From NCBI GenBank assembly GCA_028817795.1, contig JAPPOU010000038.1, forward strand, positions 1 through 52,708: DNA of 52,708 nt, given 5' to 3'. The stretch comes from Alphaproteobacteria bacterium. GTDB taxonomy: Bacteria; Pseudomonadota; Alphaproteobacteria; Micavibrionales; UBA2020. Shown in pieces: positions 11,959 to 46,414 of the stretch (its first letter is position 1; the number at the start of each line of letters is the position of its first letter). Under the pieces are notes generated by a model. The model was not told where the DNA came from. It did no database searches and was given only the letters and a program-made list of their open reading frames with translations. The position numbers and the translations under genes were made by a program.

Positions 11959-11986
11959 TTTTGTGGGGAAAGAATCGTTAAGGGGA

Positions 11987-26733: not shown

Positions 26734-27411
26734 ATGTCAAGAGAGACGCCCGTTTGGATCAAGGAGCGCGGGCCTGTCGGCTATGCCGAGGCCATATCCC
26801 GCATGGATGACTCTGCCTTGGATATTCGCCAAAACGGCGCGGCAGAGACAATCTGGCTTTTGGAACACCCCCCCCTTTACACCGCCGGTACCAGCGCAAA
26901 TGAAAACGATTTGATCGCACCGGAATTTCCCGTGCACCAAACAGGGCGCGGCGGGCAATATACATACCACGGCCCCGGCCAGCGCATTGCCTATGTCATG
27001 CTGGACCTGCAAAAACGCGGGGCGGATGTCAGGGCCTATGTCGATAACCTTGAAAGCTGGATTATCGCGGCGCTCACAGACTTTGGAATACGCGGGGAAC
27101 GGCGCACGGGTCGCGTGGGCATCTGGGTCGATATGACGCGACACGGCAAGCCCATGGGCACCGAAGCCAAAATCGCTGCCATTGGCGTGCGCATTAAAAA
27201 ATGGGTGACAATGCACGGCCTTGCCATCAACGTCTGCCCCGACCTGTCCCACTTTGGCGGTATCGTGCCCTGCGGCATTCGCGGGCACGGCGTCACGTCA
27301 CTGGCCGATCTGGGGTGCGATGCATCTATTGCAGATATAGACGCATCATTGCAAAAACATTTCGACGCTATTTTCACGCAACACACTGAAAAGGCACGGT
27401 CCCATGGCTAA
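26734..27411 (+). CDS. lipB: Lipoyl(octanoyl) transferase
   Basis: LLEHPPLYTAGTSA, TGRGGQYTYHGPGQRIAYVMLDL, KIAAIGVRIKKWVTMHG. Confidence 0.9.
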   Translation: MSRETPVWIKERGPVGYAEAISRMDDSALDIRQNGAAETIWLLEHPPLYTAGTSANENDLIAPEFPVHQTGRGGQYTYHGPGQRIAYVMLDLQKRGADVRAYVDNLESWIIAALTDFGIRGERRTGRVGIWVDMTRHGKPMGTEAKIAAIGVRIKKWVTMHGLAINVCPDLSHFGGIVPCGIRGHGVTSLADLGCDASIADIDASLQKHFDAIFTQHTEKARSHG

Positions 27412-28663
27412 AGAAACGCTGCCCACACGTCCCAAAACAAACAGCATGACCATTACGCGCCTGACCGGCGGTCTTATAAAAGCGGCCCCTACAAAAGACG
27501 AGCTCATCACGCAGATACGGCAAGAACTTTCCAGCCATATCACCCAAGCGGAAGAGGAACAAAAGCAGCAACAAGCAGCCGGGCAACTGCGCGGATCATT
27601 CAACAAGGCCGTAAGACGCGCGCAAAAGGAACTGGCCCGCTTTGAGCAAATCATTTCCCATGTACCGGACGGCTTTGCACTGGCCCCCGTCTATTACAAA
27701 GGCCCTGATACCGCAGAAAAAAAAGATATATACGATGAATACCTAACGCACGTGCGCAGCCAGTTCTTGCGGTATATCGCAACGGAACATGCTGATGCCG
27801 TGACAGCACTGGGCATTTGCGAAACCGGGATTGACCGCATGCGCAAGGGGCTTGAACCTGCAGACGATCAGAAACGCCCCTATAACGTCGATATCGACCA
27901 CATTGTCGAGCGCGCGGGCAGTTGGCACATGGGGGATACACAACAAAAAGACCCCCTGAACCCCGGAAGGACAAAGGCACAGGTTAATCATTTCGCCAAT
28001 CTTATTCTGTTACCCAGCGAAATCCATGGCATGAAAAACAACCTGAACAACGTCCAGTTCTCCAGCGGTCCGCCCGCGCGGCAGGGGCGCTGGATGTTGA
28101 TGCTGGTGCCCGACGATACGCATGCAGGTTTCGTCTGCCCGCCGCAACCAAAGCGTATATTAAATGGCTTAAGTTTTCGCACCAGCGACATCTCGCGCAA
28201 GACGGGCTACTTAACGTTCCAAATTGACAACGTGTATCGCTCTCTTGAAAGCCTAAGGCAAAGCAGCATCGTACGAAAAGCACTGGCCCTTTATGATGCG
28301 ATTGCCGAAAATAAGAATACAACCGTCATGAAAGCAGCGGCACAAGACCCGGAACTCAGCCGCGTGTTCAATTATCTGGCCACGCAAGACCCGCATGCCA
28401 GCGCGGAACTGGCGCAGATTTTCCGGCCCGGCTTGAATGAAATCAAGGATAGCATCACCGATATCTTTAACGAGGTTTCGCCCGACAACCCTTCTGCCGC
28501 GACCGCAAAACAACGCATCGTTTTTTCACGCCTTTATCAAGGGCGCAAAATCAAAAGGCTGAAAAAGACACTGACAACCCTGCCCTTTCCTGAAGCGCAG
28601 GCACTGAGCGAGACGCTCACCCGTATTGACAATAAGCTTAAAGAAAAACCGCCGCAGGTTTAG
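27404..28663 (+). CDS. Hypothetical 419-aa protein with an HNH (beta-beta-alpha-Me)-like nuclease motif
   Basis: YNVDIDHIVERAGSWH...VNHFANLILLPSEIHGMKNN (aa about 160-212, nt about 27881-28039) has the D-H...N...N-L-x-L-L...H spacing of HNH nucleases. The start overlaps the lipB stop by 8 nt. Confidence 0.55.
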   Translation: MAKETLPTRPKTNSMTITRLTGGLIKAAPTKDELITQIRQELSSHITQAEEEQKQQQAAGQLRGSFNKAVRRAQKELARFEQIISHVPDGFALAPVYYKGPDTAEKKDIYDEYLTHVRSQFLRYIATEHADAVTALGICETGIDRMRKGLEPADDQKRPYNVDIDHIVERAGSWHMGDTQQKDPLNPGRTKAQVNHFANLILLPSEIHGMKNNLNNVQFSSGPPARQGRWMLMLVPDDTHAGFVCPPQPKRILNGLSFRTSDISRKTGYLTFQIDNVYRSLESLRQSSIVRKALALYDAIAENKNTTVMKAAAQDPELSRVFNYLATQDPHASAELAQIFRPGLNEIKDSITDIFNEVSPDNPSAATAKQRIVFSRLYQGRKIKRLKKTLTTLPFPEAQALSETLTRIDNKLKEKPPQV

Positions 28664-29086: not shown

Positions 29087-29761
29087 TTAACACGACGGCC
29101 GATCAATCCAGACCGTCAGGCACGTCACGCCGCAACTGCCGTAGTCCAGCGCCGCCTGGCATGAGCTGAACTTGCGCATAAAGCGCGTTAAAGCATCAAG
29201 ATGCGTCGCGCTTAACGGAGCCGTTATTTCCATGCCGACACCATCAGCAACAGTATTGAAATACGTCCATTCCGTATAGCCGGAGGGTGGTGGCGGCAAA
29301 AGCTGGCCGCGATTGCCCGCACCCTGGAACATATTACGCGCTGTCGAGGACGACATCAGGCATTTCAAATTGCGCACTTGGTCATTACCCGCCGCGCCAC
29401 CGGGGTTGAGGGCATCATTCGGCTCCAACGGATAGGGCGTGTTGGCATTATCTGCCGCGTCAATATCATTATCGCCATCCAGATCACCGCCGCCGCCCGG
29501 AAATTCCAGCACGCATTCGGTCACAGCCGCGCGAATCAAGTTCGCCTGCGCGTACAATTCGCTGGCTGTGTTCTGCGCGACCTGCGTTGATACGGTGCTA
29601 TCGCTGTCTTCCATGACAACAAAGCTTAAAGCCCCGATCAGGGCGACAGCCATAAGAATATAAAAGAGGACGCTGCCCCGCGCCCCGCGTGAAGATGGAG
29701 AAGGGGAGGCTTCGATAAGGAAGCGCTCCCCTTTTTCCATGTGTGCGTCTGCTTTGTTCAT
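29087..29761 (-). CDS. Pilin-like protein 2 (224 aa, putative minor pilin/pseudopilin)
   Basis: Basic leader ...SSRGARG, then the hydrophobic helix SVLFYILMAVALIGALSFVV, then a globular part with a C-terminal Cys cluster (SSCQAALDYGSCGVTCLTVWIDRPSC). No Glu at +5. A vestigial KGERFLIE precedes a Ser/Pro linker. Confidence 0.55.
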   Translation of the reverse strand: MNKADAHMEKGERFLIEASPSPSSRGARGSVLFYILMAVALIGALSFVVMEDSDSTVSTQVAQNTASELYAQANLIRAAVTECVLEFPGGGGDLDGDNDIDAADNANTPYPLEPNDALNPGGAAGNDQVRNLKCLMSSSTARNMFQGAGNRGQLLPPPPSGYTEWTYFNTVADGVGMEITAPLSATHLDALTRFMRKFSSCQAALDYGSCGVTCLTVWIDRPSC

Positions 29762-29779
29762 GCCAGCCGCACGGTACGA

Positions 29780-30535
29780 TTATTGTTCAACAATCGCGTG
29801 GTAGTACACAAACGGGCCGTTTGCGTTGGTCGCGTTCGAATAGCAAGCAAAAGGCTCGCCAATGGCACCGGAAATGGTGGTTGCCGTACCGGTTACACCA
29901 GCCGTAGACGCGCCTGCACCACCATCCTGCGTTCCAGGAATGCCTTCAGTACCATCCGTAGGCGTCGCAAAGCTGACCGCCGCCACTGACTGGAAGCCCA
30001 GAGTCACACCCAAGCCTGTATTGATCGAGTTACAGGTACCCGTGGTCACGCCGAGAAACGCAAAAGCATCGCGGTTGGTGGCGGCAAGTGCGGAACCGTT
30101 CACGCCCTCAATATACCAGCCACCAACATTACCCGATGGCGTTGCCGCCTTGAAGCGCCAGTCGTTACAGGCTGCGGCCTGCGTATCATCTGTACAAGCC
30201 GTACCAACCACAGCCGTTGACGGTGGTGTTTGCGCGGTCACGCCGCCACCTGTGGGCGAGAAAATCGCATCGCCACCAGACGTCGCATCAAAATCAACCG
30301 CCGTTGCCGCCGTACCCGTCAAAATCAGGCGGGTCGCTGCCGTGCGAATGGCAGATGGATACTGCGTGAGCTGCGCTGCGTTAATCAGCCCCTGCTCGCG
30401 GTCAATAGAACCAGAACCCCGGCCCGACTGCGTCACCGCATAAGACAATGCCGCAAACAGCGCAACGGCAATCAAGATCAGGAACAGGGCGTTACCGCGC
30501 TCCCCCTGACGGTGTTTACATGAAAGTGCTTTCAT
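29780..30535 (-). CDS. Pilin-like protein 1 (251 aa, candidate major subunit)
   Basis: MKALSCKHRQGERG, then NALFLILIAVALFAALSYAV, then a Thr/Gly/Ala-rich globular domain with paired Cys residues. Strong SD AAGGGAGAG. First of the two terminal genes of the filament operon. Confidence 0.6.
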   Translation of the reverse strand: MKALSCKHRQGERGNALFLILIAVALFAALSYAVTQSGRGSGSIDREQGLINAAQLTQYPSAIRTAATRLILTGTAATAVDFDATSGGDAIFSPTGGGVTAQTPPSTAVVGTACTDDTQAAACNDWRFKAATPSGNVGGWYIEGVNGSALAATNRDAFAFLGVTTGTCNSINTGLGVTLGFQSVAAVSFATPTDGTEGIPGTQDGGAGASTAGVTGTATTISGAIGEPFACYSNATNANGPFVYYHAIVEQ

Positions 30536-30598
30536 CTTTTCTCTCCCTTTTTAAAGTCAAAAGCCTCGTTGGTTTACAAAACTTAATCTTGTTTCAGC

Positions 30599-31162
30599 CT
30601 AGCCCTCTCCGGACAAAATGCCTGCATCGCGTGGTGGATTATCAACACGCACCATCTCCACCTTCATGATTGCTGAAAGCTTTGATCCCGTACAATCCCT
30701 GCCAACGCACATGCTGGAAATCTGCACGCGCCAGTTCTTGCCGCCGTTTTGCAAGTAGTTCACGGCTGCCAAAAACTCAGGGAAAAACTGTGTATCACTG
30801 GCGCTCAGCGTGACTTGATTGCCGCTGATGACCATGCCAACCTCTGTATAGGTTTCTTTTATTTTGTCCTGCAAATCCTGCAACGATTTTTGCGGCGGCG
30901 CGGAATACGTCAGAACGGGAATGGGGGGCTTCAACGCCTCCACCTTCATCAATTCTGCACGCAATTCACTGACGCGGCCCGATTCCACAACCGTGAAAAA
31001 CACAGTCACCCCGGCAATAATCCAGGCCATGCCTGCCGCAATCAACGCGTTATAACCGACATTCAGGGGCAAAGCGTCAAGGAAGCGATCCAGATCCTTA
31101 ATGGCCTGGGGATTCGTCCAGCGCTTTAGCGTGTTCATGTCTATTTTGTCGAATCCCTGCAA
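30599..31162 (-). CDS. Bitopic membrane protein, GspM/PilO-like by topology only
   Basis: About 40 aa cytoplasmic, a TM segment (YNALIAAGMAWIIAGVTVFFTVV), then a coiled segment (ELRAELMKVEAL) and a periplasmic domain of about 100 aa. The start is TTG 31162 or ATG 31138. Confidence 0.4.
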   Translation of the reverse strand: MQGFDKIDMNTLKRWTNPQAIKDLDRFLDALPLNVGYNALIAAGMAWIIAGVTVFFTVVESGRVSELRAELMKVEALKPPIPVLTYSAPPQKSLQDLQDKIKETYTEVGMVISGNQVTLSASDTQFFPEFLAAVNYLQNGGKNWRVQISSMCVGRDCTGSKLSAIMKVEMVRVDNPPRDAGILSGEG

Positions 31163-31344
31163 AGCAGATACCCCGTTTAAAAACCCAACCCAAGCCTATG
31201 GTACTACAGGCTCATTCTTTGATTCTAGGGATAAAATGTGTCAACATGATGGCATTCCCCTCAAATTTCGTAAAATTTGTCTCTTTTTTCACGCGTATTT
31301 GCATTAATGCCTTGTTAATACAAAATTTAATGCGCATCTGTTTT

Positions 31345-31749
31345 CTACTTCGCCGCCTTTTTCCTGCAGGCATCTGCATAAACAACCAACGATTTTCCGC
31401 AACCCTTAGGGTGGGGGTGATCTTTGCACTGCCGCATAACCCACTTCAGAGAATTTCCCACATTGTCCAACGGTATCGTACGACAAAAGCTTTGGCTGTA
31501 ACTGGCCTTAGCCGTGCAACCACGGGCAAACCCCATGGCACTTATCATGCAAGCTTGTTCCCCAAAGCAACCCCCAAGTTGCTGTCGTGTTTGCCCAAAA
31601 CATGCGCGCAAATCATGTGCCTTACCATAGGCATACCCCTTTTCAAGACTCTCGCCACCACCCATGCTCTGTCCAAAAAAGTAAGCTGCAACGATCAGAA
31701 CCACAAGCGCCAGAAAAATAAAGCCCACGGTCTTCAATAGTTTTCCCAT
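31345..31749 (-). CDS. Small membrane-anchored Cys-rich protein (134 aa)
   Basis: N-terminal anchor KTVGFIFLALVVLIVAAYFF, then a domain with 9 Cys residues. No motif recognised. Confidence 0.5.
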   Translation of the reverse strand: MGKLLKTVGFIFLALVVLIVAAYFFGQSMGGGESLEKGYAYGKAHDLRACFGQTRQQLGGCFGEQACMISAMGFARGCTAKASYSQSFCRTIPLDNVGNSLKWVMRQCKDHPHPKGCGKSLVVYADACRKKAAK

Positions 31750-31791
31750 GATCTCTTTCTTATCTTAAGATGCCTTAACAAAGGCCATACC

Positions 31792-32724
31792 CTAATTCGT
31801 GCCTTGGATGCGGATACGTCCCTTTTCCGCGCCAATGGCTGTCGCCTGCAGCTGTTTTGGCGCCACCGCACTGGGAATCAACGCCTCCCACATCACGCCG
31901 CCGCCGTCTTTCACTTCGTACTTTTCTAAAACACCACCGAAACTGCCAATCACATTATTCAGCTCGATAATACGCGACAAATGCTGGCTGACGTTGCTGT
32001 GCTGCGCCGCCGTTGCATCAATCAAAAGCTGGTTTGTGGCCTGTGTCGTAACCTGCCGGGCTTTATCAAGCTGCGGCGAAATAATTCCGGCCAACATATA
32101 TGATCCCGCAAGAAACAACAGCGATATAAGCGTGACGCCCAGTCCTGAAAAGACCAATACCTTAATCGCAAAGCGCGATAGTCTTTCTTGATTCAACGCC
32201 ATATTGTGCCATATCACAGGACGGGCAACTTCGGGGTTAATCGTCACGAAATTCGCATCCATGCTTTGCACCTTTGGCAAAACAGTCCGCGCCGCGCCCA
32301 GAAAAACCTGCATGCGGCCCGTATCTTTATCCCACCGAAGCGCACCTGCAACACCTTCTTGCTCGTACAAATAAATCGTTTCCCGGTCCCAATATTCGCT
32401 ATTGCCGGGCAGGGCTGCGGCCAAGGGGCACCAACTATCCGGGCTGCTTGCCAGCGCCGACGATGGCGTTGCCAAATACCAAATGCGCCCTTCATGCACA
32501 GTATAACAGTAATGCACCCGTTCCGTGCCGCAGGCCTGCGATGCCGCGTTCCATACAGCTTCTTCTTCAGTGCCCGGAATATGCGGCAGGCCGCCACCCA
32601 CCAGTTCCGATGGCAAATAGGGCGGCGTCATCGCAATGGCATTTTCTGTCGCAATCGCCGTTGCCGTCGCCGCTGCGTCTTTGCCGGTCATTTGCGGGTT
32701 TTGTATGGTGGACGATGAGTCCAT
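31792..32724 (-). CDS. Bitopic membrane protein, GspL / PilM-PilN-fusion-like by topology only
   Basis: Cytoplasmic domain of about 190 aa, a TM segment (FAIKVLVFSGLGVTLISLLFLAGSYMLAGII), then a coiled segment and a periplasmic domain of about 90 aa. It follows the platform gene. Confidence 0.4.
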   Translation of the reverse strand: MDSSSTIQNPQMTGKDAAATATAIATENAIAMTPPYLPSELVGGGLPHIPGTEEEAVWNAASQACGTERVHYCYTVHEGRIWYLATPSSALASSPDSWCPLAAALPGNSEYWDRETIYLYEQEGVAGALRWDKDTGRMQVFLGAARTVLPKVQSMDANFVTINPEVARPVIWHNMALNQERLSRFAIKVLVFSGLGVTLISLLFLAGSYMLAGIISPQLDKARQVTTQATNQLLIDATAAQHSNVSQHLSRIIELNNVIGSFGGVLEKYEVKDGGGVMWEALIPSAVAPKQLQATAIGAEKGRIRIQGTN

Positions 32725-32752
32725 TGCAGGTTCCTTGTCTTTCTCTTTTTTA

Positions 32753-33967
32753 TCAGGGCGTCATAAACTGGCCCATCATGCTATCCATGCTCATGTTCAT
32801 AACCGTCAGCGCGTAAATCGCGCTACCAAATGCTACCACGAGATAAAGGCCGGATAAACCGAATGCAAGCCACACAATCAAACTATGTTTCGTTTTCGCG
32901 TTGGTTTGCCTCATTTCGGAAATAGACTCCATGAGCGTTGCCACCTGCCCCAAATCGGAAATACCGGCCAGCTCCAAACGTTCGTTCTTTGTCAGCGGTG
33001 CACGATCCAGTGCTGCACCCAAACCAACGCCACGTGACAAATCTTCGCGCGCATTCATCCAATATTCGCTCACATCCGGAATATTACTGGCTTCGGAGGC
33101 TTGTTCCAAAACATCGCCAATCGGCACGTTACCGCGTAACATCCGGGCCGCCGCTGCTGTCGAGTCGGAAAAACCCAGATCACGCAGATACGCGCCAATC
33201 AACGGAATTTTACGCACAATGCGGGCCGTCGGCCAATCACGTTTACCCCGGTTATGCCAGAACGATAAAATCGTCCAAACAAGAAAGGCGCCCATCGCAT
33301 AGGCGACATAGAGCAATACATCCCACAACAAAGAAAGATTTCCGACAACCTTGTTATATTGCTCTAACTTGTCCGGTTCGGATGGTGGGTTGCTTTCAAA
33401 CCAGCCGATAATTTTTCCCTTGCCCCAATACATGCCCTGCACGATCGTCAGAATATCAAACCCCAGCCAAGCCATCGTACCAATCACCTTGCCGCGATTT
33501 TTCCGCTTTTGCGTGATGTTTTGAATGGCGTGTGGAATCCCTTCGTGCAGGCGGTTTGATCGTTCCGATGCCGCCAAAATCGCCAGCGTGCCGTAATCAT
33601 AAATGTTCAACGACCGTAAAGCGTCAATAACACCAAGACCCCGCGCCAAGGCCTCCCGCGCTGGCGACAAAATATTCTGCCGCCGTGGATTGGTTTCTGC
33701 CTGAATAAGTCGCCACAATGCAACGCCGGGCGATGTCGCCGTGGAACGAAACTGGATACCGCGCAATAACTGCACCTGCCACCAGCTCGACCGCGCCAAC
33801 CAGCGTTCAAGGGGGGAGCGCGCATGCGGACGGATTGTCAAAACATAGCCGCCACGCTTGGTAACTTCGTGCCGCACGTCGGCTTGCGATGGCATGTAAT
33901 AAGATTCTTCCAATACCCGTGGCCCTGCGGGTGTGTCGATAGAAAATTTAACGATCCACTGCTGCAT
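32753..33967 (-). CDS. GspF/PilC-family inner-membrane platform protein
   Basis: 404 aa with two GspF-like cytoplasmic helical domains (e.g. LARGLGVIDALRSLNIYDYGTLAILAASERSNRLHEGI; LRGNVPIGDVLEQASE...) alternating with three TM segments. Confidence 0.75.
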   Translation of the reverse strand: MQQWIVKFSIDTPAGPRVLEESYYMPSQADVRHEVTKRGGYVLTIRPHARSPLERWLARSSWWQVQLLRGIQFRSTATSPGVALWRLIQAETNPRRQNILSPAREALARGLGVIDALRSLNIYDYGTLAILAASERSNRLHEGIPHAIQNITQKRKNRGKVIGTMAWLGFDILTIVQGMYWGKGKIIGWFESNPPSEPDKLEQYNKVVGNLSLLWDVLLYVAYAMGAFLVWTILSFWHNRGKRDWPTARIVRKIPLIGAYLRDLGFSDSTAAAARMLRGNVPIGDVLEQASEASNIPDVSEYWMNAREDLSRGVGLGAALDRAPLTKNERLELAGISDLGQVATLMESISEMRQTNAKTKHSLIVWLAFGLSGLYLVVAFGSAIYALTVMNMSMDSMMGQFMTP

Positions 33968-33973
33968 ATGCCG

Positions 33974-35803
33974 TTACTCCCTAAGGAGGACCAGGCCCAC
34001 CTTTGGGTCGATCTGCCCGTCCGCAACCAAAAGCCGCACGCCATCTGCGCGGGAAATATGAGTCACGCCTTTTTCATGAAGAATATCATTCACGTTATGC
34101 ATTAATGCGTGGAAAATCGGGTCACGCTGCGATAAAGGCGTATCCACCACCAAAGCTTCCAAAAGCAGCGCCCGGCCCAAAACGCCGGTATGATTACACA
34201 GATCGCAGCCATTCGGGTTATGTGTATGAACAATATGCTCGGCGTGCAGTTGCAAAGCTTCGCGATCTTCTTCGTTCAGCGCATCACCTGCGGGAATTTT
34301 GCTGGTGCAACTATGGCACAGGGTCTTAATAAGACGCTGGTTCAAAACGCCCCTGATTTGCTGTGACAATGTATAAGTCGAAGATCGCTCGCGCTCGGAC
34401 GGCATAAAGGATTTCAAACGTTCCAGCGTCTGCACCGCCGTATCGGCGTGGATGGTCGAGATTACCGTGTGGCCGGATTCCGCAGCCTTCAACGACGTTT
34501 CCACCGTCGCCGCATCCCGCATCTCGCCAATGATGATATAATCAGGATCATGGCGCATCGCAGCGCGGATCAGGTCCGAAAAATGACGGCCCGGCCCATC
34601 GGCCACTTGCCATTGCGTTGCATAGCGCATTTCGTATTCAATCGGGTCTTCAATCGACAGAACATGGCGACGGCGGCGGTCAATTTCAAGAACGCAGGCA
34701 TACAATGTGGTCGACTTACCTGAACCCGTCGGGCCAGACATGAGTAGCAAACCGCCACCACCTTTAATCTCCGGTGCCAGCAGGCGCGTTAAATGCTCGT
34801 TGACCATGGGGTAGCGCGAAAACAGCTCTTCAAAAGAACGCAGACTGGCGCGATCCAAAAGACGCAACGTCAATTTTTCGCCATCTTGCGCTTGCGGCCC
34901 TGCCGCCACACGCACGTCGATCGCGCGGCCCTGCCATGTAAACCCAAACCGACCATCCTTGGGCGTTGATCTGTCACCAAAGTTTAGGCCCGCATCGCGT
35001 TTTAACAGCGTCGTTAAACGCGCCATCGCATCAGCGGGCAACAAGTGCATGGGCACCATATCACCATCAATGCGGTACTTGATCCAGTTTGGTGCATCGG
35101 GCGCGTTATCTTGCACCAGGTGAATATCCGATACGCGCATCTGCAACGATTCCGCCAGCATGTCACGCTGGAACTGGTTGAGTAAAAGGCCGTTATCAAT
35201 ATCGTTTAGCCACATCGCCAACGTTTTCTCGCAGCGGTCCGCCGACAAGTCATGTACGGACTGCAATGTGCGAACAAGTTCAGACCTGTCCCACAGCTCT
35301 ATATCGATCTTTTCAACTTTCAGGCCGATACGCAATGCTGTATTTTTCAGTGCGGCAAGCTGTCGGTCCGTCAAATCATAGAGCGGCGCAATCGTCAAAA
35401 CCCCCTTATCGAGCGAGACAAGGTGAATGCTGAGAGGCAACCATGACTGCACCGGCAACACCTGGCGCAATTGGTCGCCGGAGGCGCTGTCGCGTTCGCC
35501 ATCTGCAACCTCGGCTTCCGAACCCGCGCCCGCAGCGCTCAGCAATTGTTCAGCAGAGCGCGTTTGTCCTTGCTGTGCAAGCAGGGCGCGCTCGCGCATG
35601 ACCATATCCAAATATCTTTCACGCCCAATGTTGGACCGCGTCTTGCGACGATCGCCCTTGCGCCGTTCAAAACCGCCGGGCGGGCCAAGGTCTTTTTCAC
35701 GTCTGTCAGATTTACGGGGATCGGGCGGCAGGGAATCTTCCGGCCTTTTCATGCCGGTTTTTTCTAAAATCTCTTCCCTGTCTTTTCCCGTTGTATCGTT
35801 CAC
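33974..35803 (-). CDS. GspE/PilB-family type IV filament assembly ATPase with an Arg/Asp-rich N-terminal extension
   Basis: Walker A SGPTGSGKSTTL, Asp box VLSIEDPIEYE, Walker B DPDYIIIGEMRD, His box GHTVISTIHA, tetracysteine CHSC...CDLC, and an N-terminal GSPII-type domain. GTG start at 35803. Confidence 0.9.
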   Translation of the reverse strand: MNDTTGKDREEILEKTGMKRPEDSLPPDPRKSDRREKDLGPPGGFERRKGDRRKTRSNIGRERYLDMVMRERALLAQQGQTRSAEQLLSAAGAGSEAEVADGERDSASGDQLRQVLPVQSWLPLSIHLVSLDKGVLTIAPLYDLTDRQLAALKNTALRIGLKVEKIDIELWDRSELVRTLQSVHDLSADRCEKTLAMWLNDIDNGLLLNQFQRDMLAESLQMRVSDIHLVQDNAPDAPNWIKYRIDGDMVPMHLLPADAMARLTTLLKRDAGLNFGDRSTPKDGRFGFTWQGRAIDVRVAAGPQAQDGEKLTLRLLDRASLRSFEELFSRYPMVNEHLTRLLAPEIKGGGGLLLMSGPTGSGKSTTLYACVLEIDRRRRHVLSIEDPIEYEMRYATQWQVADGPGRHFSDLIRAAMRHDPDYIIIGEMRDAATVETSLKAAESGHTVISTIHADTAVQTLERLKSFMPSERERSSTYTLSQQIRGVLNQRLIKTLCHSCTSKIPAGDALNEEDREALQLHAEHIVHTHNPNGCDLCNHTGVLGRALLLEALVVDTPLSQRDPIFHALMHNVNDILHEKGVTHISRADGVRLLVADGQIDPKVGLVLLRE

Positions 35804-35823
35804 AATCCGTCCATCAGGTTTTT

Positions 35824-37431
35824 TTACTGTTCACTTGTCGATGATGATGTTGCCGTTGTCGTCATCTCCGGCTCTGCCGGAGAGATCGTACCAATGCGGA
35901 AAGACTTGTCAAAGAACAACGTCACATCCTCATGTTCCCGGCTCAACACAACGCCGTTTTCAACAATCGTGGCCATCCAGCGGGCGCCACCAATAAATGA
36001 TTCACGCCCGTTGCGCACAATAATACTGCCACCCGGCCCGCTCAGCACCGCCTTTTGCGCCGACATAGACGTCACGGACACACCGTCCAGCGATGCGCCC
36101 ATATTCGCCAGAACATCGGCAACGTCGTTCAAGTCAGGCGGCGTTGTTCGCGCCTCTCCCGCACTTCGCGGGCGCTGCCCTCCTGTTTCTGCCTGGCTTC
36201 CACCATCAAGCATGGGGAGAGATGATTGCCGCACCTGCAAAGAAGACGTATCACGCGGTGCCGCCGCCGCCGCTTCACCGCGAATAGGTAAAACCAAAAC
36301 GCCCCGCGCTCCGGTATGCAAAACCTGCAAATCATCTACCAGCGCACCCGCCCTGTTCGGCGTCCAGCTAATCGTAAGAACGCACGCGCCGCCGGGGGTA
36401 ATTTCGGTGCCCACCCTACAGCCGTCACGCGACAACGACAACCCGCTATCCGACCCCGCAAGACGAATGTTCTTGAGCGTTAACGCGGAATAGCCGGAAT
36501 TCACCAGCATCACCGTATTGGACGACACGCTATTGATGCCCGTGCCAAAGTTCACTTCCGTTTTATCCGCCACTAAAAGCCCCATATCCGGCACGGATTC
36601 AGGATAAATCGCGGCGCTGGCCCCTGTGGGCGGTTGATACGTGCCTTTTATATCCACCTTTGTCAAACTGCTGTTGGCGGAGTGGCCGACAAGCAAAACC
36701 CCTTCCGTCAAACCACCGACCTGGGGCGTCCATGTAACATTCACAACACAAGATTCCCCGGCCACCAAACGCTCCGGACATTCGCTGACATATTTGAAGC
36801 CCGACAAAGCCGCACTATCCAGTTTTAAATTTGTCAGCGTGACCGGATCTGCCGTGCGGTTACGCAGCAAGATAGAACGCACCAGTGGAAGGCCGCTATT
36901 GACGCTACCAAAATCCAGCGTTTCCGGCACGGCTTCGACATCCATTTTAACTTTATCGAGCTGTTGCGTTGAAGAGCTTTCCGCTTCCCCGGTAATCGCC
37001 GCCTTGGCAAGGCGCGAGCGACCATCGTGGTCAATCAACACTTCTACCCTATAGGCGCCCGCCTGCAAGCCCGTCACGGCAACGGTAATAGCACATTGCC
37101 CTTCCGGCGGTAATGGCTCTTCCGCACATTTATTCAAATTGACCTGTGCGGCAACGCCGGATGACGGGTAAAGGTTTACACCCAATGTCTTGACAGGTTG
37201 CGTGCCGTTGTTTTGAAAGACTGTCACGACATATGCCGTCGTGCCGACCGCAACCTTGCCGGCCACAATCGAATCTTGCACGGCCTTCAAGTCAGGCCCT
37301 GCCGCCGCGCCCGCTTTGCCCGATGTCGGGTCCTTAAACGCATTGAACTGCGCCAGCGCCGGATAAGACGTCAGGCACAACCCCATTACCAGAATAAAAG
37401 CCAGCCTTTGCATGCCAGATACAAATATCAC
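35824..37431 (-). CDS. Secreted protein with three tandem beta-sandwich (ASH / choice-of-anchor-D-like) repeats and a PilP/GspC-HR-like C-terminus
   Basis: Signal peptide MQRLAFILVMGLCLTSYPALAQ. There are three repeats of about 85 aa, each ending C.(V/I)(T/N)(V/I)...P...G pattern. The C-terminal VTSMSAQKAVLSGPGGSIIVRNGRESFIGGARWMATIVENGVVL resembles secretin-binding PilP/GspC modules. The start is GTG 37431 or ATG 37413. Confidence 0.55.
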   Translation of the reverse strand: MIFVSGMQRLAFILVMGLCLTSYPALAQFNAFKDPTSGKAGAAAGPDLKAVQDSIVAGKVAVGTTAYVVTVFQNNGTQPVKTLGVNLYPSSGVAAQVNLNKCAEEPLPPEGQCAITVAVTGLQAGAYRVEVLIDHDGRSRLAKAAITGEAESSSTQQLDKVKMDVEAVPETLDFGSVNSGLPLVRSILLRNRTADPVTLTNLKLDSAALSGFKYVSECPERLVAGESCVVNVTWTPQVGGLTEGVLLVGHSANSSLTKVDIKGTYQPPTGASAAIYPESVPDMGLLVADKTEVNFGTGINSVSSNTVMLVNSGYSALTLKNIRLAGSDSGLSLSRDGCRVGTEITPGGACVLTISWTPNRAGALVDDLQVLHTGARGVLVLPIRGEAAAAAPRDTSSLQVRQSSLPMLDGGSQAETGGQRPRSAGEARTTPPDLNDVADVLANMGASLDGVSVTSMSAQKAVLSGPGGSIIVRNGRESFIGGARWMATIVENGVVLSREHEDVTLFFDKSFRIGTISPAEPEMTTTATSSSTSEQ

Positions 37432-39185
37432 GGCGCACCTCCTGCATTGTCATCAGCCCGCGTCAGTGGCATGGGCGCTAAATCCGTATGCCCTACGGGT
37501 AATTGCGGCATTTGCGGTTTTTGCGGTGCCTGTACGTCGGGGTAATTTTCTTCAAAACCGCCGTTGGCCGATTCGCCGTTATTCCCCGCTTGCGCGACCG
37601 GCGCAATGTCACTGCCGAAAACGCGGCCCATCTGGCCGCTTAAATCACGCGCCATCCGGTTATCGCGGGGCATTGTTGCCACCGGCACCGTATCCAGTTC
37701 ATCACCCGGCACGAAAGCAACAACACGGGGGCGCAAAAGGAAGACAAGTTCTGTATTGCGGGTCGTCGCAGCGCGGGCCGATGAAAACAACGGCTTCATG
37801 AAACCGGGGCCGCTTGATGTATATTCGTCTTTCTGCGTCACCATGCCACCGATCAAAATGGCATCACCCGGCCGTACGCGTACATAGGTGCTCAGGTTAC
37901 GCTGTGTCGTGCGCGGCAACTGAATTGTCGTGTTTGGATCAGGGTTAAAGGTATCAAGGCGTAACAGTTCATCAATGTTAATCGCGATCGAGCCGTAAAC
38001 CGTCGATTGGTCCCACGCGCTTTCCACGTTCATCGTCAGGCCTGTCTGCACCGTCCCTGTCGTCGTTGCAACCGTATCAGCAATACCCGGCGTGGTTGAC
38101 GGCGTGCGCGATACGCCGCTGACAAAGTTTTCCGTCTGCTGGATCAGCAACGATGCCGAACCGCCCGACAGCACCGCCAATTGCGGCTGCGATACCGTTT
38201 TCACCGTGCCATGTTCGGAAATAAACTCCAAAACCGTGCTAGGCTGGATGCCGTTTGATCCCGTCCATGCGGGCGTAATAGTAATGGGTGCCGCCGTGCC
38301 GTCCGGCGCACCGCCGGGCAGGATGATATCAAGGCCAAAATTGCCATCCTGCATCAAAACACTCCAATCAATACCGGTACGGTTCTGGTTATCAAGCGCC
38401 ACTTCCCAAATATGGGTTTCATAGATAATCATGGCCGTGTTTTTACGCAGGCGCTCGAAATATTTCTCCGCGCTTTTTTGCGTGCGCTGCGTTGCCGTAT
38501 AGATCATGACACGCGTTGTGCTGTCGATCACGGGCGTGGACCCAATCAGTGCCGTCAAGCCGGTGGCGATTTGGTCATACCCACCGCTGCTGCTACTGCT
38601 GCCGCTTCCTGATGATGACGAAGACGATGAGGACGATGATGAACTGCCGCCACTCGATGAGGATGAAGACGATGACGCCGTATCAGGCAGCGGCGGCAAA
38701 TCCACCACAAATGTCTCCGTGTCCTTGATCGTCATCAACCCGTCTTTGTAAACACAGTACATATTCGCAAGGCCGCAGATTTTATCCACAACCTCATCCA
38801 CCGTGCCGCGCAGGTTTGAAACAGCAATGCGCGCATTCATGGCACTTTCCGTTTCAAAGGCCAAGGAGACGTCATAGTCATCCAAAACCATCTGCAAGGC
38901 TGCCGCCAGCGACGTACCGCGTAACTCGAACGGGCCAATAAAATCTTCAGGCAACGGGTCTTGCGGGGCGCGTTGCGGCACCAGAACATCCCTGCCCAGG
39001 CGCACCCGCGTGACGGGGTCACGTTTTTCGTTCAGGCCCTGAAAACGATCCAGGGGCGGCGTCACTGTCGGCACAGAGGCAGAACGCCCATCCGGCACAT
39101 CAACGCCGGCACAGCTTGTCACGGCCAGCGTCAAAGGCAAAAGCAGGCACAAAGCACGCAGCGTGTATTTAAATTTATGCGGCAT
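37428..39185 (-). CDS. Lipoprotein secretin (type IVb R64 PilN-like outer-membrane channel)
   Basis: Lipobox LTLAVTSC. Secretin core ...TVKTVSQPQLAVLSGGSASLLIQQTENFVSG...YVRVRPGDAILIGGMVTQKDEYTSSGPG...NTELVFLLRPRVV. Confidence 0.85.
   Translation of the reverse strand: MPHKFKYTLRALCLLLPLTLAVTSCAGVDVPDGRSASVPTVTPPLDRFQGLNEKRDPVTRVRLGRDVLVPQRAPQDPLPEDFIGPFELRGTSLAAALQMVLDDYDVSLAFETESAMNARIAVSNLRGTVDEVVDKICGLANMYCVYKDGLMTIKDTETFVVDLPPLPDTASSSSSSSSGGSSSSSSSSSSSSGSGSSSSSGGYDQIATGLTALIGSTPVIDSTTRVMIYTATQRTQKSAEKYFERLRKNTAMIIYETHIWEVALDNQNRTGIDWSVLMQDGNFGLDIILPGGAPDGTAAPITITPAWTGSNGIQPSTVLEFISEHGTVKTVSQPQLAVLSGGSASLLIQQTENFVSGVSRTPSTTPGIADTVATTTGTVQTGLTMNVESAWDQSTVYGSIAINIDELLRLDTFNPDPNTTIQLPRTTQRNLSTYVRVRPGDAILIGGMVTQKDEYTSSGPGFMKPLFSSARAATTRNTELVFLLRPRVVAFVPGDELDTVPVATMPRDNRMARDLSGQMGRVFGSDIAPVAQAGNNGESANGGFEENYPDVQAPQKPQMPQLPVGHTDLAPMPLTRADDNAGGAP
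38580..38675 (-). repeat. Poly-Ser/Gly low-complexity linker inside the secretin (aa 171-202)
   Basis: SSSSSSSSGGSSSSSSSSSSSSGSGSSSSSGG, encoded by mixed AGC/TCA/TCG/TCC codons with short TCATC/GTCGTC-type DNA reiterations. Confidence 0.9.
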
Positions 39186-39562
39186 TATCTTGCAGCCCCC
39201 CTTTGCAACAGACGGCCAACCGTCGATACCAATCTTTCTTTTTCAACAGGCTTTAACATGACGGCGGCCACGTTGTGACGCCCCGCCCGCTCCAAAAGAC
39301 TGGGGTCTTGGTCGCCCGTTACCAAAATAACCGGAATTTTAAAGCCTTCGGCTTGCAGGACGGAAATAAAATCAAACCCGCCCATCGGTTCCATGCGCAC
39401 GTCGACAATGGCAAGTGATACATCATTCGCGACAACGTCCAGCGCATGATCGCCGTCCGTCGCCTCACGCGTGTCGTAACCCGCCCCCTTCAGGAAGGTA
39501 ACAATCTGCATCCTGACAAAGTCGTTATCCTCGACAACCAATATTGTGCGCTGTTCGCTCAT
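39185..39562 (-). CDS. Single-domain response regulator (CheY-like receiver)
   Basis: ILVVEDNDFVR...LAIVDVRMEPMGGFD...PVILVTG...MLKP carries the acidic pocket, the phospho-Asp and the conserved Thr/Lys. The stop overlaps the secretin start (TAATG). Confidence 0.85.
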   Translation of the reverse strand: MSEQRTILVVEDNDFVRMQIVTFLKGAGYDTREATDGDHALDVVANDVSLAIVDVRMEPMGGFDFISVLQAEGFKIPVILVTGDQDPSLLERAGRHNVAAVMLKPVEKERLVSTVGRLLQRGAAR

Positions 39563-39689
39563 ACTCCCCTTAGCAGCTTGTCTCTTCCAAAACAGAAAAG
39601 ACGATCACGCCCCCATCAATCAAAAACCCCGCAGGAAAAAAATCCTGCGCGCCGCGCCATGTAACCCCTTACATAGAGCCGCACCTTTA

Positions 39690-39701
39690 AAGTATATACT
39701 T
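39690..39701. promoter_or_regulatory. Perfect 12-bp palindrome in the divergent control region (candidate operator)
   Basis: AAGTATATACTT, lying between the receiver/secretin operon (start 39562, minus strand) and the prepilin peptidase gene (start 39756, plus strand). Confidence 0.3.
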
Positions 39702-39755
39702 AAGATTAAAGAGTCTACAACTGGCAATTACGGAACGCAGAGGGAACAGCACGGC

Positions 39756-40271
39756 ATGACGGACACAATTCTGCAAATTGTTCACATAACGGTGTTCATC
39801 TCGATTTTCGGCGTGATGATCGCGTTGGCTGCCATAGACGTAAAGCATTACATATTGCCAGATGTACTCAACGCCGCGCTCGGCATCCTCTTCCTTGCAT
39901 TTCATCAACTTGCAGGATGGCACCTGATCTCCCCCACACAGGCATTGATTGGCGCGCTGGCGGGGGGCGGCATGCTGCTGGCCATCCGCTGTGCCGCTAA
40001 TGCCTATTACAAAGCCGACACGCTCGGTTTGGGTGATGTGAAGCTAATGACCGCAGCGGGTTTGGGGCTTGGATTTCCAGATATACTGATGGCCCTCTCC
40101 CTTGGCGCCATGGTCGGGCTGGGGCACGGTATAATTATGGGAATAAATGAGCGGCGGCGGGGGAATAAAAACGCCTCTTTTGCCAAAGTTAATGTCCCTG
40201 CGGGCTTGGGCCTTTGCGTGGGAATCGCTATCATGTTCCTGATCGCATTCCAAATGAACTGGCTGGCATGA
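39756..40271 (+). CDS. Short (171-aa) A24-family prepilin peptidase without a methyltransferase domain
   Basis: First catalytic Asp in LAAIDVKHYILPD, second in GLGDVKLMTAAGLGLG. The track start at 39546 would read through the divergent promoter, so ATG 39756 begins the first TM segment. Confidence 0.8.
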   Translation: MTDTILQIVHITVFISIFGVMIALAAIDVKHYILPDVLNAALGILFLAFHQLAGWHLISPTQALIGALAGGGMLLAIRCAANAYYKADTLGLGDVKLMTAAGLGLGFPDILMALSLGAMVGLGHGIIMGINERRRGNKNASFAKVNVPAGLGLCVGIAIMFLIAFQMNWLA

Positions 40272-45772: not shown

Positions 45773-46414
45773 ATGCTGATGGGTCTTTTGCTGTCACAAA
45801 GCGGTCTGGACTGGGCCATGATTCTTGTCGCGTTTTTCGGGGCCTATCTATCCGGTTCCGTGCCTTTTGGCCTTCTTATCACGCGTATCGCGGGGATGGA
45901 CGATATCCGCAAATCCGGCTCTGGCAATATCGGCGCGACAAACGTTTTACGGCTGGGCGGCAAAAAACTGGGCGCGATCACACTGGTGCTGGATGCGTTA
46001 AAGGGCACCATACCCGTACTTGTGGCGCGGCAGTTTCATATGGATTACGCCCTGCTGGCCGCGCTGGGCGCAGTGCTGGGGCACATCTTTCCTATCTGGC
46101 TGCGCTTTAAGGGTGGCAAAGGTGTGGCAACGTCTTTGGGTGTTCTTATCGCGCTTAACTTTATTTTGGGCCTTGGCCTTGTCGGCATCTGGATCATGAC
46201 GGCGGCCTTATCGCGCATGTCATCGCTTGCCGCGCTAACAGCCTTTGGGTTTTCGCCCGTGCTGTCTTTCCTGCTGACCAAAAGCCCGCAAGTCGCGGCG
46301 GTCGCGCTCATTATTGCCGTTATTGTTTTTATCCGCCATCACGAAAACATCCGCCGCCTTATCAACGACACGGAAAGTAAAATAAACTTCGGGAGCACGA
46401 CAAAGGATGGCTGA
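45773..46414 (+). CDS. plsY: Glycerol-3-phosphate acyltransferase PlsY
   Basis: YLSGSVPFGLL, GSGNIGATNVLR, FKGGKGVATSLG. Confidence 0.9.
   Translation: MLMGLLLSQSGLDWAMILVAFFGAYLSGSVPFGLLITRIAGMDDIRKSGSGNIGATNVLRLGGKKLGAITLVLDALKGTIPVLVARQFHMDYALLAALGAVLGHIFPIWLRFKGGKGVATSLGVLIALNFILGLGLVGIWIMTAALSRMSSLAALTAFGFSPVLSFLLTKSPQVAAVALIIAVIVFIRHHENIRRLINDTESKINFGSTTKDG

Follow-up and report, generated by a model that had tools for sequence, protein, structure and literature searches.

An unassigned type IV filament locus in Micavibrio-type Alphaproteobacteria, with Glu5-less pilins and a probable type IVb-like architecture

Contig JAPPOU010000038.1 (assembly GCA_028817795.1) of an alphaproteobacterium of the Micavibrionales (UBA2020) carries a cluster of genes for a type IV filament (TFF) machine, which we analysed within a stretch of 52,708 nucleotides, positions 1 to 52,708 of the contig, referred to here as the window. 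Ten open reading frames (ORFs) lie on the minus strand from 39562 down to 29087, at the coordinates given for them in an initial annotation made from the sequence alone, and a divergent plus-strand ORF ending at 40271 encodes the prepilin peptidase. One of the ten is treated below as an insert, and the machine itself consists of nine co-directional genes together with the divergent short peptidase. Direct reading of the sequence bears out the translational coupling that had been proposed at two junctions: within TAATG at 39183-39187 the stop codon of the receiver gene overlaps the start of the secretin gene, and within GTGA at 37428-37431 the secretin stop overlaps the GTG start of a gene for a 535-residue protein. 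The receiver, secretin, ATPase and platform recognised earlier match PF00072, PF00263, PF00437 and PF00482, respectively. The last two matches, both above Pfam cut-offs, are to a generic TFF pair encoded together, and the cluster is a real TFF machine.

The peptidase gene (39756-40271, plus strand) starts with the ATG at 39756 and encodes a 171-residue protein that contains both aspartate motifs (IDVKHYILPD and GLGDVK) and lacks an N-methyltransferase domain, the length and the lack of this domain being as first described; it belongs to family A24 (PF01478, 58.7 bits). The first gene of the operon (39185-39562, minus strand) encodes a CheY-like receiver of 125 residues, a single-domain protein (PF00072, 6e-20) in which the Asp/Asp/Thr/Lys receiver residues are readable. 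It is followed by the gene for an outer-membrane secretin of 585 residues (37428-39185, minus strand), and its recognition as a lipoprotein secretin is upheld by the lipobox LAVTSC and by PF00263 (52.8 bits). Among curated NCBIfam models the secretin is best matched by MshL (93 bits), which aligns over its full length (positions 2-290 of 290), and then by type IVb PilN (78 bits). Its best match among solved structures is BfpB (56.7 bits, E 1.4e-14), and R64 PilN was not detected with phmmer. Residues ~170-200 form a long Ser/Gly low-complexity linker, possibly a flexible spacer or a site of glycosylation.

The next gene (35824-37431, minus strand) encodes the periplasmic protein of 535 residues, which has a Sec signal peptide, three immunoglobulin-like (Ig-like) domains of the ASH or choice-of-anchor-D type, and a conserved C-terminal domain of ~70 residues. 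The three beta-sandwich repeats noted previously are thus the ASH domains, but the PilP/GspC-like end ascribed to the protein was not recovered, as profile searches of the C-terminal domain against solved structures and Pfam gave no PilP or GspC match. This domain aligns, weakly (hhalign E 0.0016), with proteins of 234 and 219 residues at the same position in the two plasmid loci described below, and in the distant relative L096, too, this position is occupied by an Ig-domain protein. The C-terminal tails of the family are rich in Ser, Thr and Gly, and may likewise be flexible spacers or glycosylation sites.

The assembly ATPase (609 residues; 33974-35803, minus strand) is of the GspE/PilB class, as first stated, with a PF00437 match of 259 bits and the predicted zinc-binding CxxC...CxxC reading CHSC...CDLC. 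Against solved structures it scored 184 bits with GspE, 164 with PilF, 140 with PilB and 103 with BfpD. Its first 110 residues, ahead of the region that aligns with GspE, form a charged extension rich in Arg, Lys, Asp and Glu that has no domain match, and no MshE-type N-terminal domain was found, there being no match to PF05157 (T2SSE_N) in the Pfam scan. The inner-membrane platform (32753-33967, minus strand) is a single protein of 404 residues whose attribution to the GspF/PilC class is supported by PF00482 (37.7 bits); it barely matches the solved structure of PilC.

Downstream of the platform gene lies the gene (31792-32724, minus strand) for the signature protein of the system, a bitopic protein of 310 residues. 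Neither this protein nor the products of 134, 187, 251 and 224 residues gave a meaningful Pfam or NCBIfam match, in line with the initial annotation, which had recognised no motif in the 310-, 134- and 187-residue proteins. More than 1,203 homologues of the 310-residue protein were found, all of them unnamed, with 54-75% identity among the matches listed. A sensitive profile search extended the family to 205 representative clusters, with identities as low as 16-20%, and a Pfam scan of 61 distant relatives found no domain. In an AlphaFold2 model built from a diverse alignment of 61 sequences (pLDDT 92.2, pTM 0.67), residues from about 40 to 160 fold into a cytoplasmic alpha/beta domain, the transmembrane segment is part of a long helix, and the periplasmic end has an alpha-beta-beta-alpha-beta-beta arrangement; a coiled coil follows the transmembrane helix. 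The top Foldseek match of this model is 4bz0, the cytoplasmic domain of PilO2Bp from Burkholderia pseudomallei (probability 0.94, E 0.022, 174 aligned columns), whose PilO2 belongs to a type IVb machine of the R64 type, while an actin-like protein of unknown function and PilM are found lower in the list. PilO2 and BfpC are bitopic actin-like proteins of type IVb machines (PMC3984277). Comparison of the 310-residue family with R64 PilO2 by hhalign gave no signal. The modelled architecture, in which an actin-like cytoplasmic domain, a transmembrane helix and a periplasmic end can be distinguished, agrees with the GspL-like topology suggested earlier and, at modest significance, supports placing the protein in a PilO2/BfpC/GspL class by the way it would work (like GspL, PilM-N or PilO2) rather than by family membership. 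An earlier model, made from 20 close homologues, reached a pLDDT of 67 and gave no Foldseek match below E 1; it has been superseded.

The putative partner of this protein is also bitopic. Its gene (30599-31162, minus strand) has two possible starts, TTG at 31162 or ATG at 31138, giving 187 or 179 residues. In the product a short cytoplasmic tail precedes a single transmembrane helix, which an ALKPPVP linker connects to a periplasmic domain carrying a conserved CxGxxC pair. Profile and hhalign comparisons revealed no sequence link to GspM, PilO, HofO or R64 PilP; its topology and position suggest a GspM/PilO-like role. The idea that the 187-residue family and the periplasmic part of the 310-residue protein might be paralogs of the PilN/PilO type was rejected, as the transmembrane segments alone aligned. 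Profile searches against solved structures with the 251-residue pilin, the 187-residue protein, the 310-residue protein and the C-terminal domain of the 535-residue protein returned nothing significant; matches to EF-Tu barrels at E ~1 were treated as chance.

In the window the genes for these two bitopic proteins are separated by an insert of ~630 bp (31163-31791, GC content 0.45) that contains a Cys-rich ORF of 134 residues (31345-31749, minus strand) of uncertain coding status. This ORF had been proposed as a Cys-rich anchor of the machine, a proposal that is not sustained by the 80 related loci considered below. In none of them does it, or an ORF of 180 residues on the opposite strand, have a counterpart, and elsewhere the 187-residue gene directly follows the 310-residue gene. 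The codon score of the 134-residue ORF (-0.035) lies between those of genes (0.15-0.21) and of antisense ORFs (-0.12 to -0.31), and the public gene call at the insert is the 180-residue ORF. We therefore treat the 134-residue ORF as a lineage-specific insert and not as a component of the machine, because it has no counterpart elsewhere, a low GC content, an intermediate codon score and a public call on the other strand. A terminator-like hairpin is located at 31214-31191 (minus strand), just upstream of the 187-residue gene, and the insert with its hairpin may split the operon in the lineage of the window.

The last two genes encode the candidate major pilin of 251 residues (29780-30535, minus strand) and a second, minor-type pilin (29087-29761, minus strand) of 224 or 217 residues, depending on whether its start is placed at 29761 or 29740. 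With the predicted cleavage site marked by an arrow, the leader of the 251-residue protein reads ...GERG↓NALFLILIAVALFAALSY, or at greater length ...GERG↓NALFLILIAVALFAALSYAVTQSGR, and that of the 224-residue protein ...GARG↓SVLFYILMAVALIGALSF. As pointed out previously, and as can be read directly in the translations, both lack Phe or Met at position +1 and Glu at +5. The N-terminus of the 251-residue family, which has 2,764 homologues, is essentially invariant ([E/Q]-x-G↓N-[A/V]-LFLILIAVALFAALSYAVTQS), residues +1 to +19 being invariant or nearly so in 23 aligned homologues and genome loci, and two Cys residues near the C-terminus are also invariant. The corresponding N-terminus of the 224-residue family in related loci is G↓SALVYILIAIALLAALT, and the two families have an N-terminal module in common (hhalign 99.2%). 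Outside this module both pilins are variable, with mature lengths of about 195-240 residues. A class III signal peptide, that is a short basic leader, Gly at -1 and ~20 hydrophobic residues, is present in both, and the same is true of a third protein, of 1576 residues, described next. The Pfam scan of the pilins gave no match to the canonical N_methyl motif PF07963. Position +5 is occupied by Leu in the 251-residue family, by Tyr in the 224-residue family and by Ala, Met or Thr in the family of the 1576-residue protein, and acidic residues are absent from the first ~25 positions of all three. As a rule, Glu5 of one pilin subunit is paired with the N-terminal amine of its neighbour, and the capping minor pilin alone is without it (2023 review). 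A residue thought to be central to subunit docking is absent from all the pilins of this lineage.

The 1576-residue protein is encoded some distance from the other genes (47512-52242, minus strand), beyond the coordinates of the locus as first delimited, and was missing from the initial list of parts. Its leader is MMRWKNQKG↓NVVAILLGGVALTGTLSYMF, also written KNQKG↓NVVAILLGGVALTG. A conserved N-terminal domain of ~190 residues with two Cys residues is followed by a long variable body and, at residues 1464-1516, by a PF13884 (Peptidase_S74) domain (5e-13), the C-terminal intramolecular chaperone domain of tail fibres. The N-terminal domain is homologous to that of large proteins encoded directly after the pilins in three other loci: the Rhodoferax plasmid locus L088 (1049 residues; E 1e-12 to the window protein), L096 (866 residues; E 4e-6) and the Micavibrio-type locus L041, in which the protein (leader YQRG↓SVLTAALGVVALVGVLSY; E 9e-32) runs off the end of the contig. 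A metagenome scan found 69 homologous loci, most with a leader of the form G↓N[V/I]F..LFGAVAL.GV, and complete ORFs of this giant family reach 2941 residues. In L141, L161-L163 and L165 the giant gene adjoins TFF genes. A giant minor pilin or tip adhesin is plausible because the cleavage motif is shared and the adjacency recurs, and we regard the 1576-residue protein as a probable eleventh component of this kind; its analogues would be R64 PilV and trimeric CofB, a large minor pilin located at the pilus tip and a known feature of type IVb systems (PMC10191384). The dprA gene (46407-47519, plus strand), which encodes a DNA-processing protein of natural transformation, is on the strand opposite to the giant gene, and the two share 8 bases (47512-47519) at the 3' end of the latter; in Micavibrio aeruginosavorus, five annotated genes separate the TFF peptidase from the region in which dprA is found, dprA being the fifth.

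The conservation of the locus was examined in a one-genome-per-species collection, which gave 214 confirmed matches of the 310-residue protein and from which 80 loci were retrieved. These come from Micavibrio-type metagenome-assembled genomes and from M. aeruginosavorus HCB189; the label 'Bdellovibrionales' on some of them stems from the placement of Micavibrio in the NCBI taxonomy. The order receiver, secretin, Ig protein, ATPase, platform, 310-residue protein, 187-residue protein, pilin, pilin is found in all 80, so that the arrangement is not a chance one, and protein identities within the lineage are 55-80%. Counts for single components are 56 related loci with the receiver in this place, 74 with the Ig protein and 81 with the 187-residue protein. 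A short divergent A24 peptidase adjoins the receiver in 49 of the 53 loci with enough flanking sequence, and both aspartate motifs are present in 49/49. Genes for a CoA-transferase and an aspartate carbamoyltransferase often flank the locus on one side, and some metagenome contigs carry genes identical to those of the window. In 47 related loci a convergent gene just after the pilins, about 1-2 kb downstream of the second pilin gene, encodes a hybrid histidine kinase that is a likely partner of the receiver. The window has no hybrid kinase at this position, where a 419-residue protein that matches no family is encoded instead (27404-28663, plus strand). Of the hybrid kinases found in the window, the nearest, at 11963-14161, is at best a doubtful orthologue of the pilin-adjacent kinase, its identity being only 32-36% over the generic kinase core.

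Curated models offer a test of subtype, and for this we used NCBIfam equivalog cut-offs and Pfam thresholds. No component reaches the curated cut-off of any model for the type II secretion system (T2SS), the type IVa or type IVb pilus, the mannose-sensitive haemagglutinin (MSH) pilus, the tight adherence (Tad) pilus or the competence (Com) pilus. The ATPase scores 231 with GspE (cut-off 630), 205 with PilB (676), 192 with ComGA (300) and 61 with the TadA-type model (373); the platform scores 31.6 with GspF (424) and 24.6 with PilC (700); and the secretin scores 93.1 with MshL (250.2), 78 with type IVb PilN (287.65), 52.7 with GspD (351) and 17.5 with PilQ (284). The view that the locus cannot be assigned to a named subtype is therefore upheld by scores that all fall far below the cut-offs, and no single established subtype accounts for all the parts with full-length, high-scoring matches. 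An unassignable TFF is by itself unsurprising, given that a census in 2019 left 884 'generic' TFF systems unclassified (PMC6668835).

Comparison with complete reference operons (R64 pilL-V, NC_005014; E. coli K-12 gspC-O, hofMNOPQ and ppdD-hofBC) gave a similar picture. The ATPase scored 163 bits with GspE, 159 with HofB and 99.5 with R64 PilQ, the platform 27.5 bits with E. coli GspF, and the secretin 12.8 bits with E. coli GspD; R64 PilR was not detected with the platform. With hhalign, five family alignments covering the 310-residue, 187-residue, Ig-protein and pilin families showed no profile-level link to the proteins of these operons, a weak match between the pilin N-termini and GspK being the sole signal against the R64 Pil, E. 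coli Gsp and Hof/PpdD sets.

Closer relatives were reached through a distant homologue of the 310-residue protein, which led to two conjugative plasmids of betaproteobacteria (Burkholderiales), those of Rhodoferax ferrireducens T118 (NC_007901.1, L088) and Methylibium petroleiphilum PM1 (NC_008826.1, L089). Their gene order is secretin(s), small periplasmic protein, ATPase, platform, 310-residue homologue, 187-residue homologue and pilins, and seven components are homologous between the window and the plasmid loci. Bit scores of the window proteins against the plasmid loci are 128-159 for the secretin, 232-274 for the ATPase, 63-76 for the platform, 36-48 for the 310-residue protein and 29-36 for the pilins, and all of these score higher against the plasmid loci than against any named family. 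Comparison by hhalign gave probabilities of 94-99% for the 310-residue and pilin families, including 94-98% for the 310-residue homologues at the same position, 98.8% and full-length homology for the 251-residue pilin and the Rhodoferax plasmid pilins, and 98-99% for the 224-residue pilin and the plasmid proteins Rf_pil180 and Mp_h184. For the 187-residue protein the homologue at the same position is well supported in the Methylibium plasmid (97%, E 5e-11) and less clear in the Rhodoferax plasmid (60%). Across the whole plasmid collection, these two records supplied the top ATPase matches and the only secretin matches at E < 1e-8, and the signature protein was found on no others, so that the system occurs on 2 of 72,556 plasmids. 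A metagenomic relative (L096/L097) has the same order, with the Ig-domain protein included, and L163, L165 and L166 encode homologues of the secretin, ATPase, platform and 310-residue protein in that order. In the window and in 80/80 genome loci the 310-residue homologue likewise lies directly after the platform, within an order that can be written secretin-X-ATPase-platform-L-M-pilins.

The sequence relationships thus describe a coherent, unnamed, type IVb-like lineage and not a mosaic or a Tad/T2SS chimera. It had been suggested initially that the locus mixes traits of T2SS/type IVa, type IVb and Tad systems, but the closest relatives of seven components lie in one lineage with the same gene order, and the 'mixed traits' are therefore better read as the signature of that lineage. 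The plasmid loci are annotated only as hypothetical or generic T2SS/type IV pilus proteins, and they differ from the window in several respects. The protein at the Ig position is short (219-234 residues) and, as judged by a Pfam scan of the Rhodoferax protein, has no Ig-like domain; no short peptidase adjoins the loci in the stretches examined; and, unlike the window, the Rhodoferax locus has two secretin genes, a peptidyl-prolyl isomerase and a tail-fibre assembly chaperone. The pilins of these plasmid relatives keep Phe at +1 (G↓FMNAL, G↓FINGM) and lack Glu5. As in the window lineage, the Rhodoferax locus has a receiver gene upstream and, downstream, a large protein with the N-terminal domain of the giant pilin. 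This 1049-residue protein contains tail-fibre-like repeats, and within the same region (L088, 16095-20727) one ORF separates it from a gene for a phage tail assembly chaperone (PF16778), and upstream there is a PRTRC system. The tail-fibre-like neighbourhood suggests a recipient-recognition fibre tied to the pilus.

Of the named systems, type IVb (R64, Bfp, Tcp, Cof) bears the greatest architectural resemblance to the locus. Like the window locus, with its small machine of about 10 parts, these systems are encoded in one cluster. The window secretin, with its lipobox, is a probable counterpart of their lipoprotein secretins, BfpB being its best solved match, and the 310-residue protein, bitopic and with a modelled actin-like cytoplasmic domain, has PilO2Bp as its nearest structure at modest significance. 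As in these systems, a PilMNOP set and a retraction ATPase are absent from the locus. The R64 peptidase PilU (218 residues) is short, like that of the window, the combination of one major pilin with a large minor pilin or adhesin (R64 PilV; the CofB trimer, PMC10191384) is what we propose here, and R64 encodes its pilus on a conjugative plasmid, the kind of element on which relatives of the window lineage are found. The lipoprotein secretin, the short peptidase, the lack of a retraction ATPase and the PilO2-like protein together make a type IVb-like architecture. There are also differences. The order L-M-N-O-P-Q-R-S-T-U-V of R64 is not that of the window; PilL, PilM, PilP and a lytic transglycosylase are absent; a CheY-like receiver, a periplasmic protein with three Ig-like domains and a giant S74 pilin are additional; and whereas R64 PilS and PilV keep Glu5 (WAILE, WASLE), the pilins of the Micavibrio-type genomes lack it and have Asn or Ser at +1.

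These comparisons also bear on the idea that the locus is a regular member of an established subtype, either type IVb of the R64 kind or MSH, which appears atypical through fast divergence in a reduced predatory genome. The secretin would agree with this, its best curated matches being MshL and type IVb PilN and its best solved match BfpB, as would the resemblance of the 310-residue structure to PilO2 and the short peptidase, and type IVb has already been divided into several variants (PMC3984277). We nevertheless think it very unlikely. Besides the gene order, the 310-residue, 187-residue and pilin families lack profile-level similarity to any R64 protein, the pilins never have the Glu5 that R64 pilins keep, and the ATPase scores 99.5 bits with R64 PilQ compared with 163 for GspE and 274 for the plasmid lineage; identities of 55-80% within the lineage speak against erratic fast divergence. 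For MSH, with which the locus has in common clustered genes, the lack of a dedicated retraction ATPase and MshL as the best curated secretin model, the Pfam and NCBIfam scans detected none of MshI, J, K, M, N, O, P and Q, the c-di-GMP-binding N-terminal domain of MshE gave no match in the ATPase, the gene order is different and the window pilins lack Glu5.

A type IVa pilus is not indicated, as neither Pfam nor hhalign gave a PilM, N, O or P match and the ORFs scanned in the window include none resembling PilT, so that the absence of a retraction ATPase and of a PilMNOP set noted at the outset holds for the ORFs and profiles covered. With Tad, which has TadA and split TadB and TadC, the locus shares only a methylase-less peptidase, and no Flp, TadE or CpaB match was obtained with Pfam or NCBIfam.

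The T2SS deserves closer attention, since a divergent T2SS with a short pseudopilus of two proteins could expel hydrolases or toxins, already folded, via its secretin onto the prey or even into it. GspE and GspF are the top curated matches of the ATPase and the platform, the tetracysteine motif is common to both systems, the order D-E-F followed by an L/M-like bitopic pair resembles that of gsp operons, no retraction ATPase is present in either, and the pilin N-termini weakly resemble that of GspK, the pseudopilin that lacks Glu5. Moreover, the genome paper on M. aeruginosavorus reports a 'functional' T2SS lacking GspC, G, H and K, at an unspecified locus, and saw secretion genes rise in the attachment phase. 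On the other side, the model scores are 3- to 13-fold below the cut-offs, and GspC, G, H, I, J, K, L and M gave no Pfam or NCBIfam match at E <= 0.1 and no more than 26% probability when E. coli K-12 GspC-M were compared by hhalign. The secretin, a short lipoprotein, is of the kind represented by MshL, PilN and BfpB; there are just two small pilins, each nonetheless large at about 195-240 mature residues and, like exposed pilins, variable beyond the N-terminus; an adhesin-like giant pilin is genetically linked; and the relatives on conjugative plasmids adjoin tail-fibre-like proteins and a tail-fibre assembly chaperone. A secretion system of this kind is in our estimate unlikely. We favour, from the gene content, an adhesive filament of the recognition type over a secretion pseudopilus, because of the large variable pilins, the adhesin-like giant pilin and the plasmid relatives beside tail-fibre-like genes.

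The plasmid relatives raise a further alternative, namely that the locus encodes a pilus concerned with DNA, either the domesticated remnant of a mating-pair-stabilising pilus of a conjugative element or a DNA-uptake (competence) pilus. The only annotated relatives outside the Micavibrio-type genomes are on conjugative plasmids (MOBH/MPF_T and MOBP/MPF_F), and the metagenome contig L086 encodes, at 155-3840, a distant homologue of the 310-residue protein and a 172-residue neighbour beside TraG/TrwB, a type IV secretion coupling protein, a context consistent with carriage on conjugative elements. The positions of dprA, beside the giant gene in the window and five annotated genes past the peptidase in M. 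aeruginosavorus, could be cited for DNA uptake, should the proximity be meaningful. However, the chromosomal site is fixed across the order, between housekeeping genes, those for the CoA-transferase and the aspartate carbamoyltransferase, with no conjugation genes in the flanks; the locus contains neither ComEA nor ComEC and no dedicated retraction ATPase; and just two of the plasmids in the collection carry the system. A DNA-related pilus of either kind accordingly seems very improbable. Of the other genes in the window we note a cluster of three ankyrin-repeat proteins at its start (1618-2583 and 2580-3533, plus strand; 4295-5092, minus strand); a further ankyrin protein is encoded near the locus on the identical metagenome contig L001.

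Our preferred reading is that the locus encodes a complete, self-contained TFF machine of an unnamed lineage with an architecture closest to type IVb, and we consider this fairly probable. Several observations weigh against it. The function is read from the genes, and the filament itself is predicted. The ATPase sequence is nearer to GspE/PilB than to type IVb BfpD or R64 PilQ. The 310-residue protein matches PilO2 modestly, with a Foldseek E of 0.022 and a TM-score of 0.41 for the target, and PF06864 does not match this protein in the Pfam scan. The putative pilins match no solved pilin by sequence, and their pilin fold is presumed. Within 10 kb of the giant gene the machine is absent in most homologous loci, so that the link between the two depends on the common leader and on the minority of loci in which they adjoin. 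Finally, transcript levels of the machine genes in M. aeruginosavorus are low, and a Tad locus and a type IVa locus with PilT are present elsewhere in its genome, which make the unnamed machine its third system; the Tad or type IVa pili could serve prey attachment instead.

The orthologues in M. aeruginosavorus ARL-13 are GMV_1930-1939, and the locus is transcribed. Six of its genes, those for both pilins, the 187- and 310-residue proteins, the platform and the Ig protein, were left as hypothetical in the genome paper (PMC3189940), and our literature searches found no study of this machine. The orthologue of the 251-residue pilin is the most transcribed gene of the locus, its RNA-seq index rising from 9.9 in the attack phase to 53.8 in attachment; the corresponding values are 10.8 and 9.5 for the 310-residue orthologue and 0.8 and 3.2 for the ATPase (PMC3189940, additional file 4).

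On the preferred reading of a type IVb-like filament machine, assembly might proceed as follows. Cleavage by the peptidase after the conserved Gly would expose Asn or Ser, in unmethylated form, at +1. With the pair of 310- and 187-residue proteins docking it on the platform, the ATPase would drive polymerisation of the 251-residue pilin through the secretin, with the Ig-domain protein bridging the periplasm, and the filament core would have to pack without the usual salt bridge from Glu5 to the N-terminal amine. The 224-residue pilin and the 1576-residue protein may prime or cap the filament, the latter as a tail-fibre-like adhesin, the system would have no dedicated retraction ATPase, and the receiver would place assembly under phosphorelay control. 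In these obligate epibiotic predators the most likely role would be contact with, or recognition of, the prey surface, and the plasmid version may serve the recognition of recipients.

A 2023 review lists six bacterial subtypes only and invites new letters for new ones. We raise, as a tentative and rather doubtful possibility, that the locus represents a seventh bacterial TFF subtype, defined by the absence of the Glu5 bridge and of N-methylation and by a giant pilin that primes or caps the filament, with a body in the form of a phage-tail-fibre-like trimer that a self-cleaving C-terminal S74 chaperone folds. Micavibrio-type predators would recognise and hold their prey with it, and conjugative plasmids their recipients would be recognised in the same way. 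If true, this would amount to a receptor-binding fibre mounted on a pilus. For the pilus field, the lineage is well populated, with 214 matches at one genome per species and thousands of metagenomic homologues; it falls outside the six named bacterial subtypes, and it connects pilins with tail-fibre architecture. For the study of predation, the locus offers a candidate fibre for prey recognition and an envelope machine that is both conserved and transcribed, which may bear on the external attachment and feeding of Micavibrio; the orthologues, GMV_1930-1939, lie in a cultured species and are open to knock-out.

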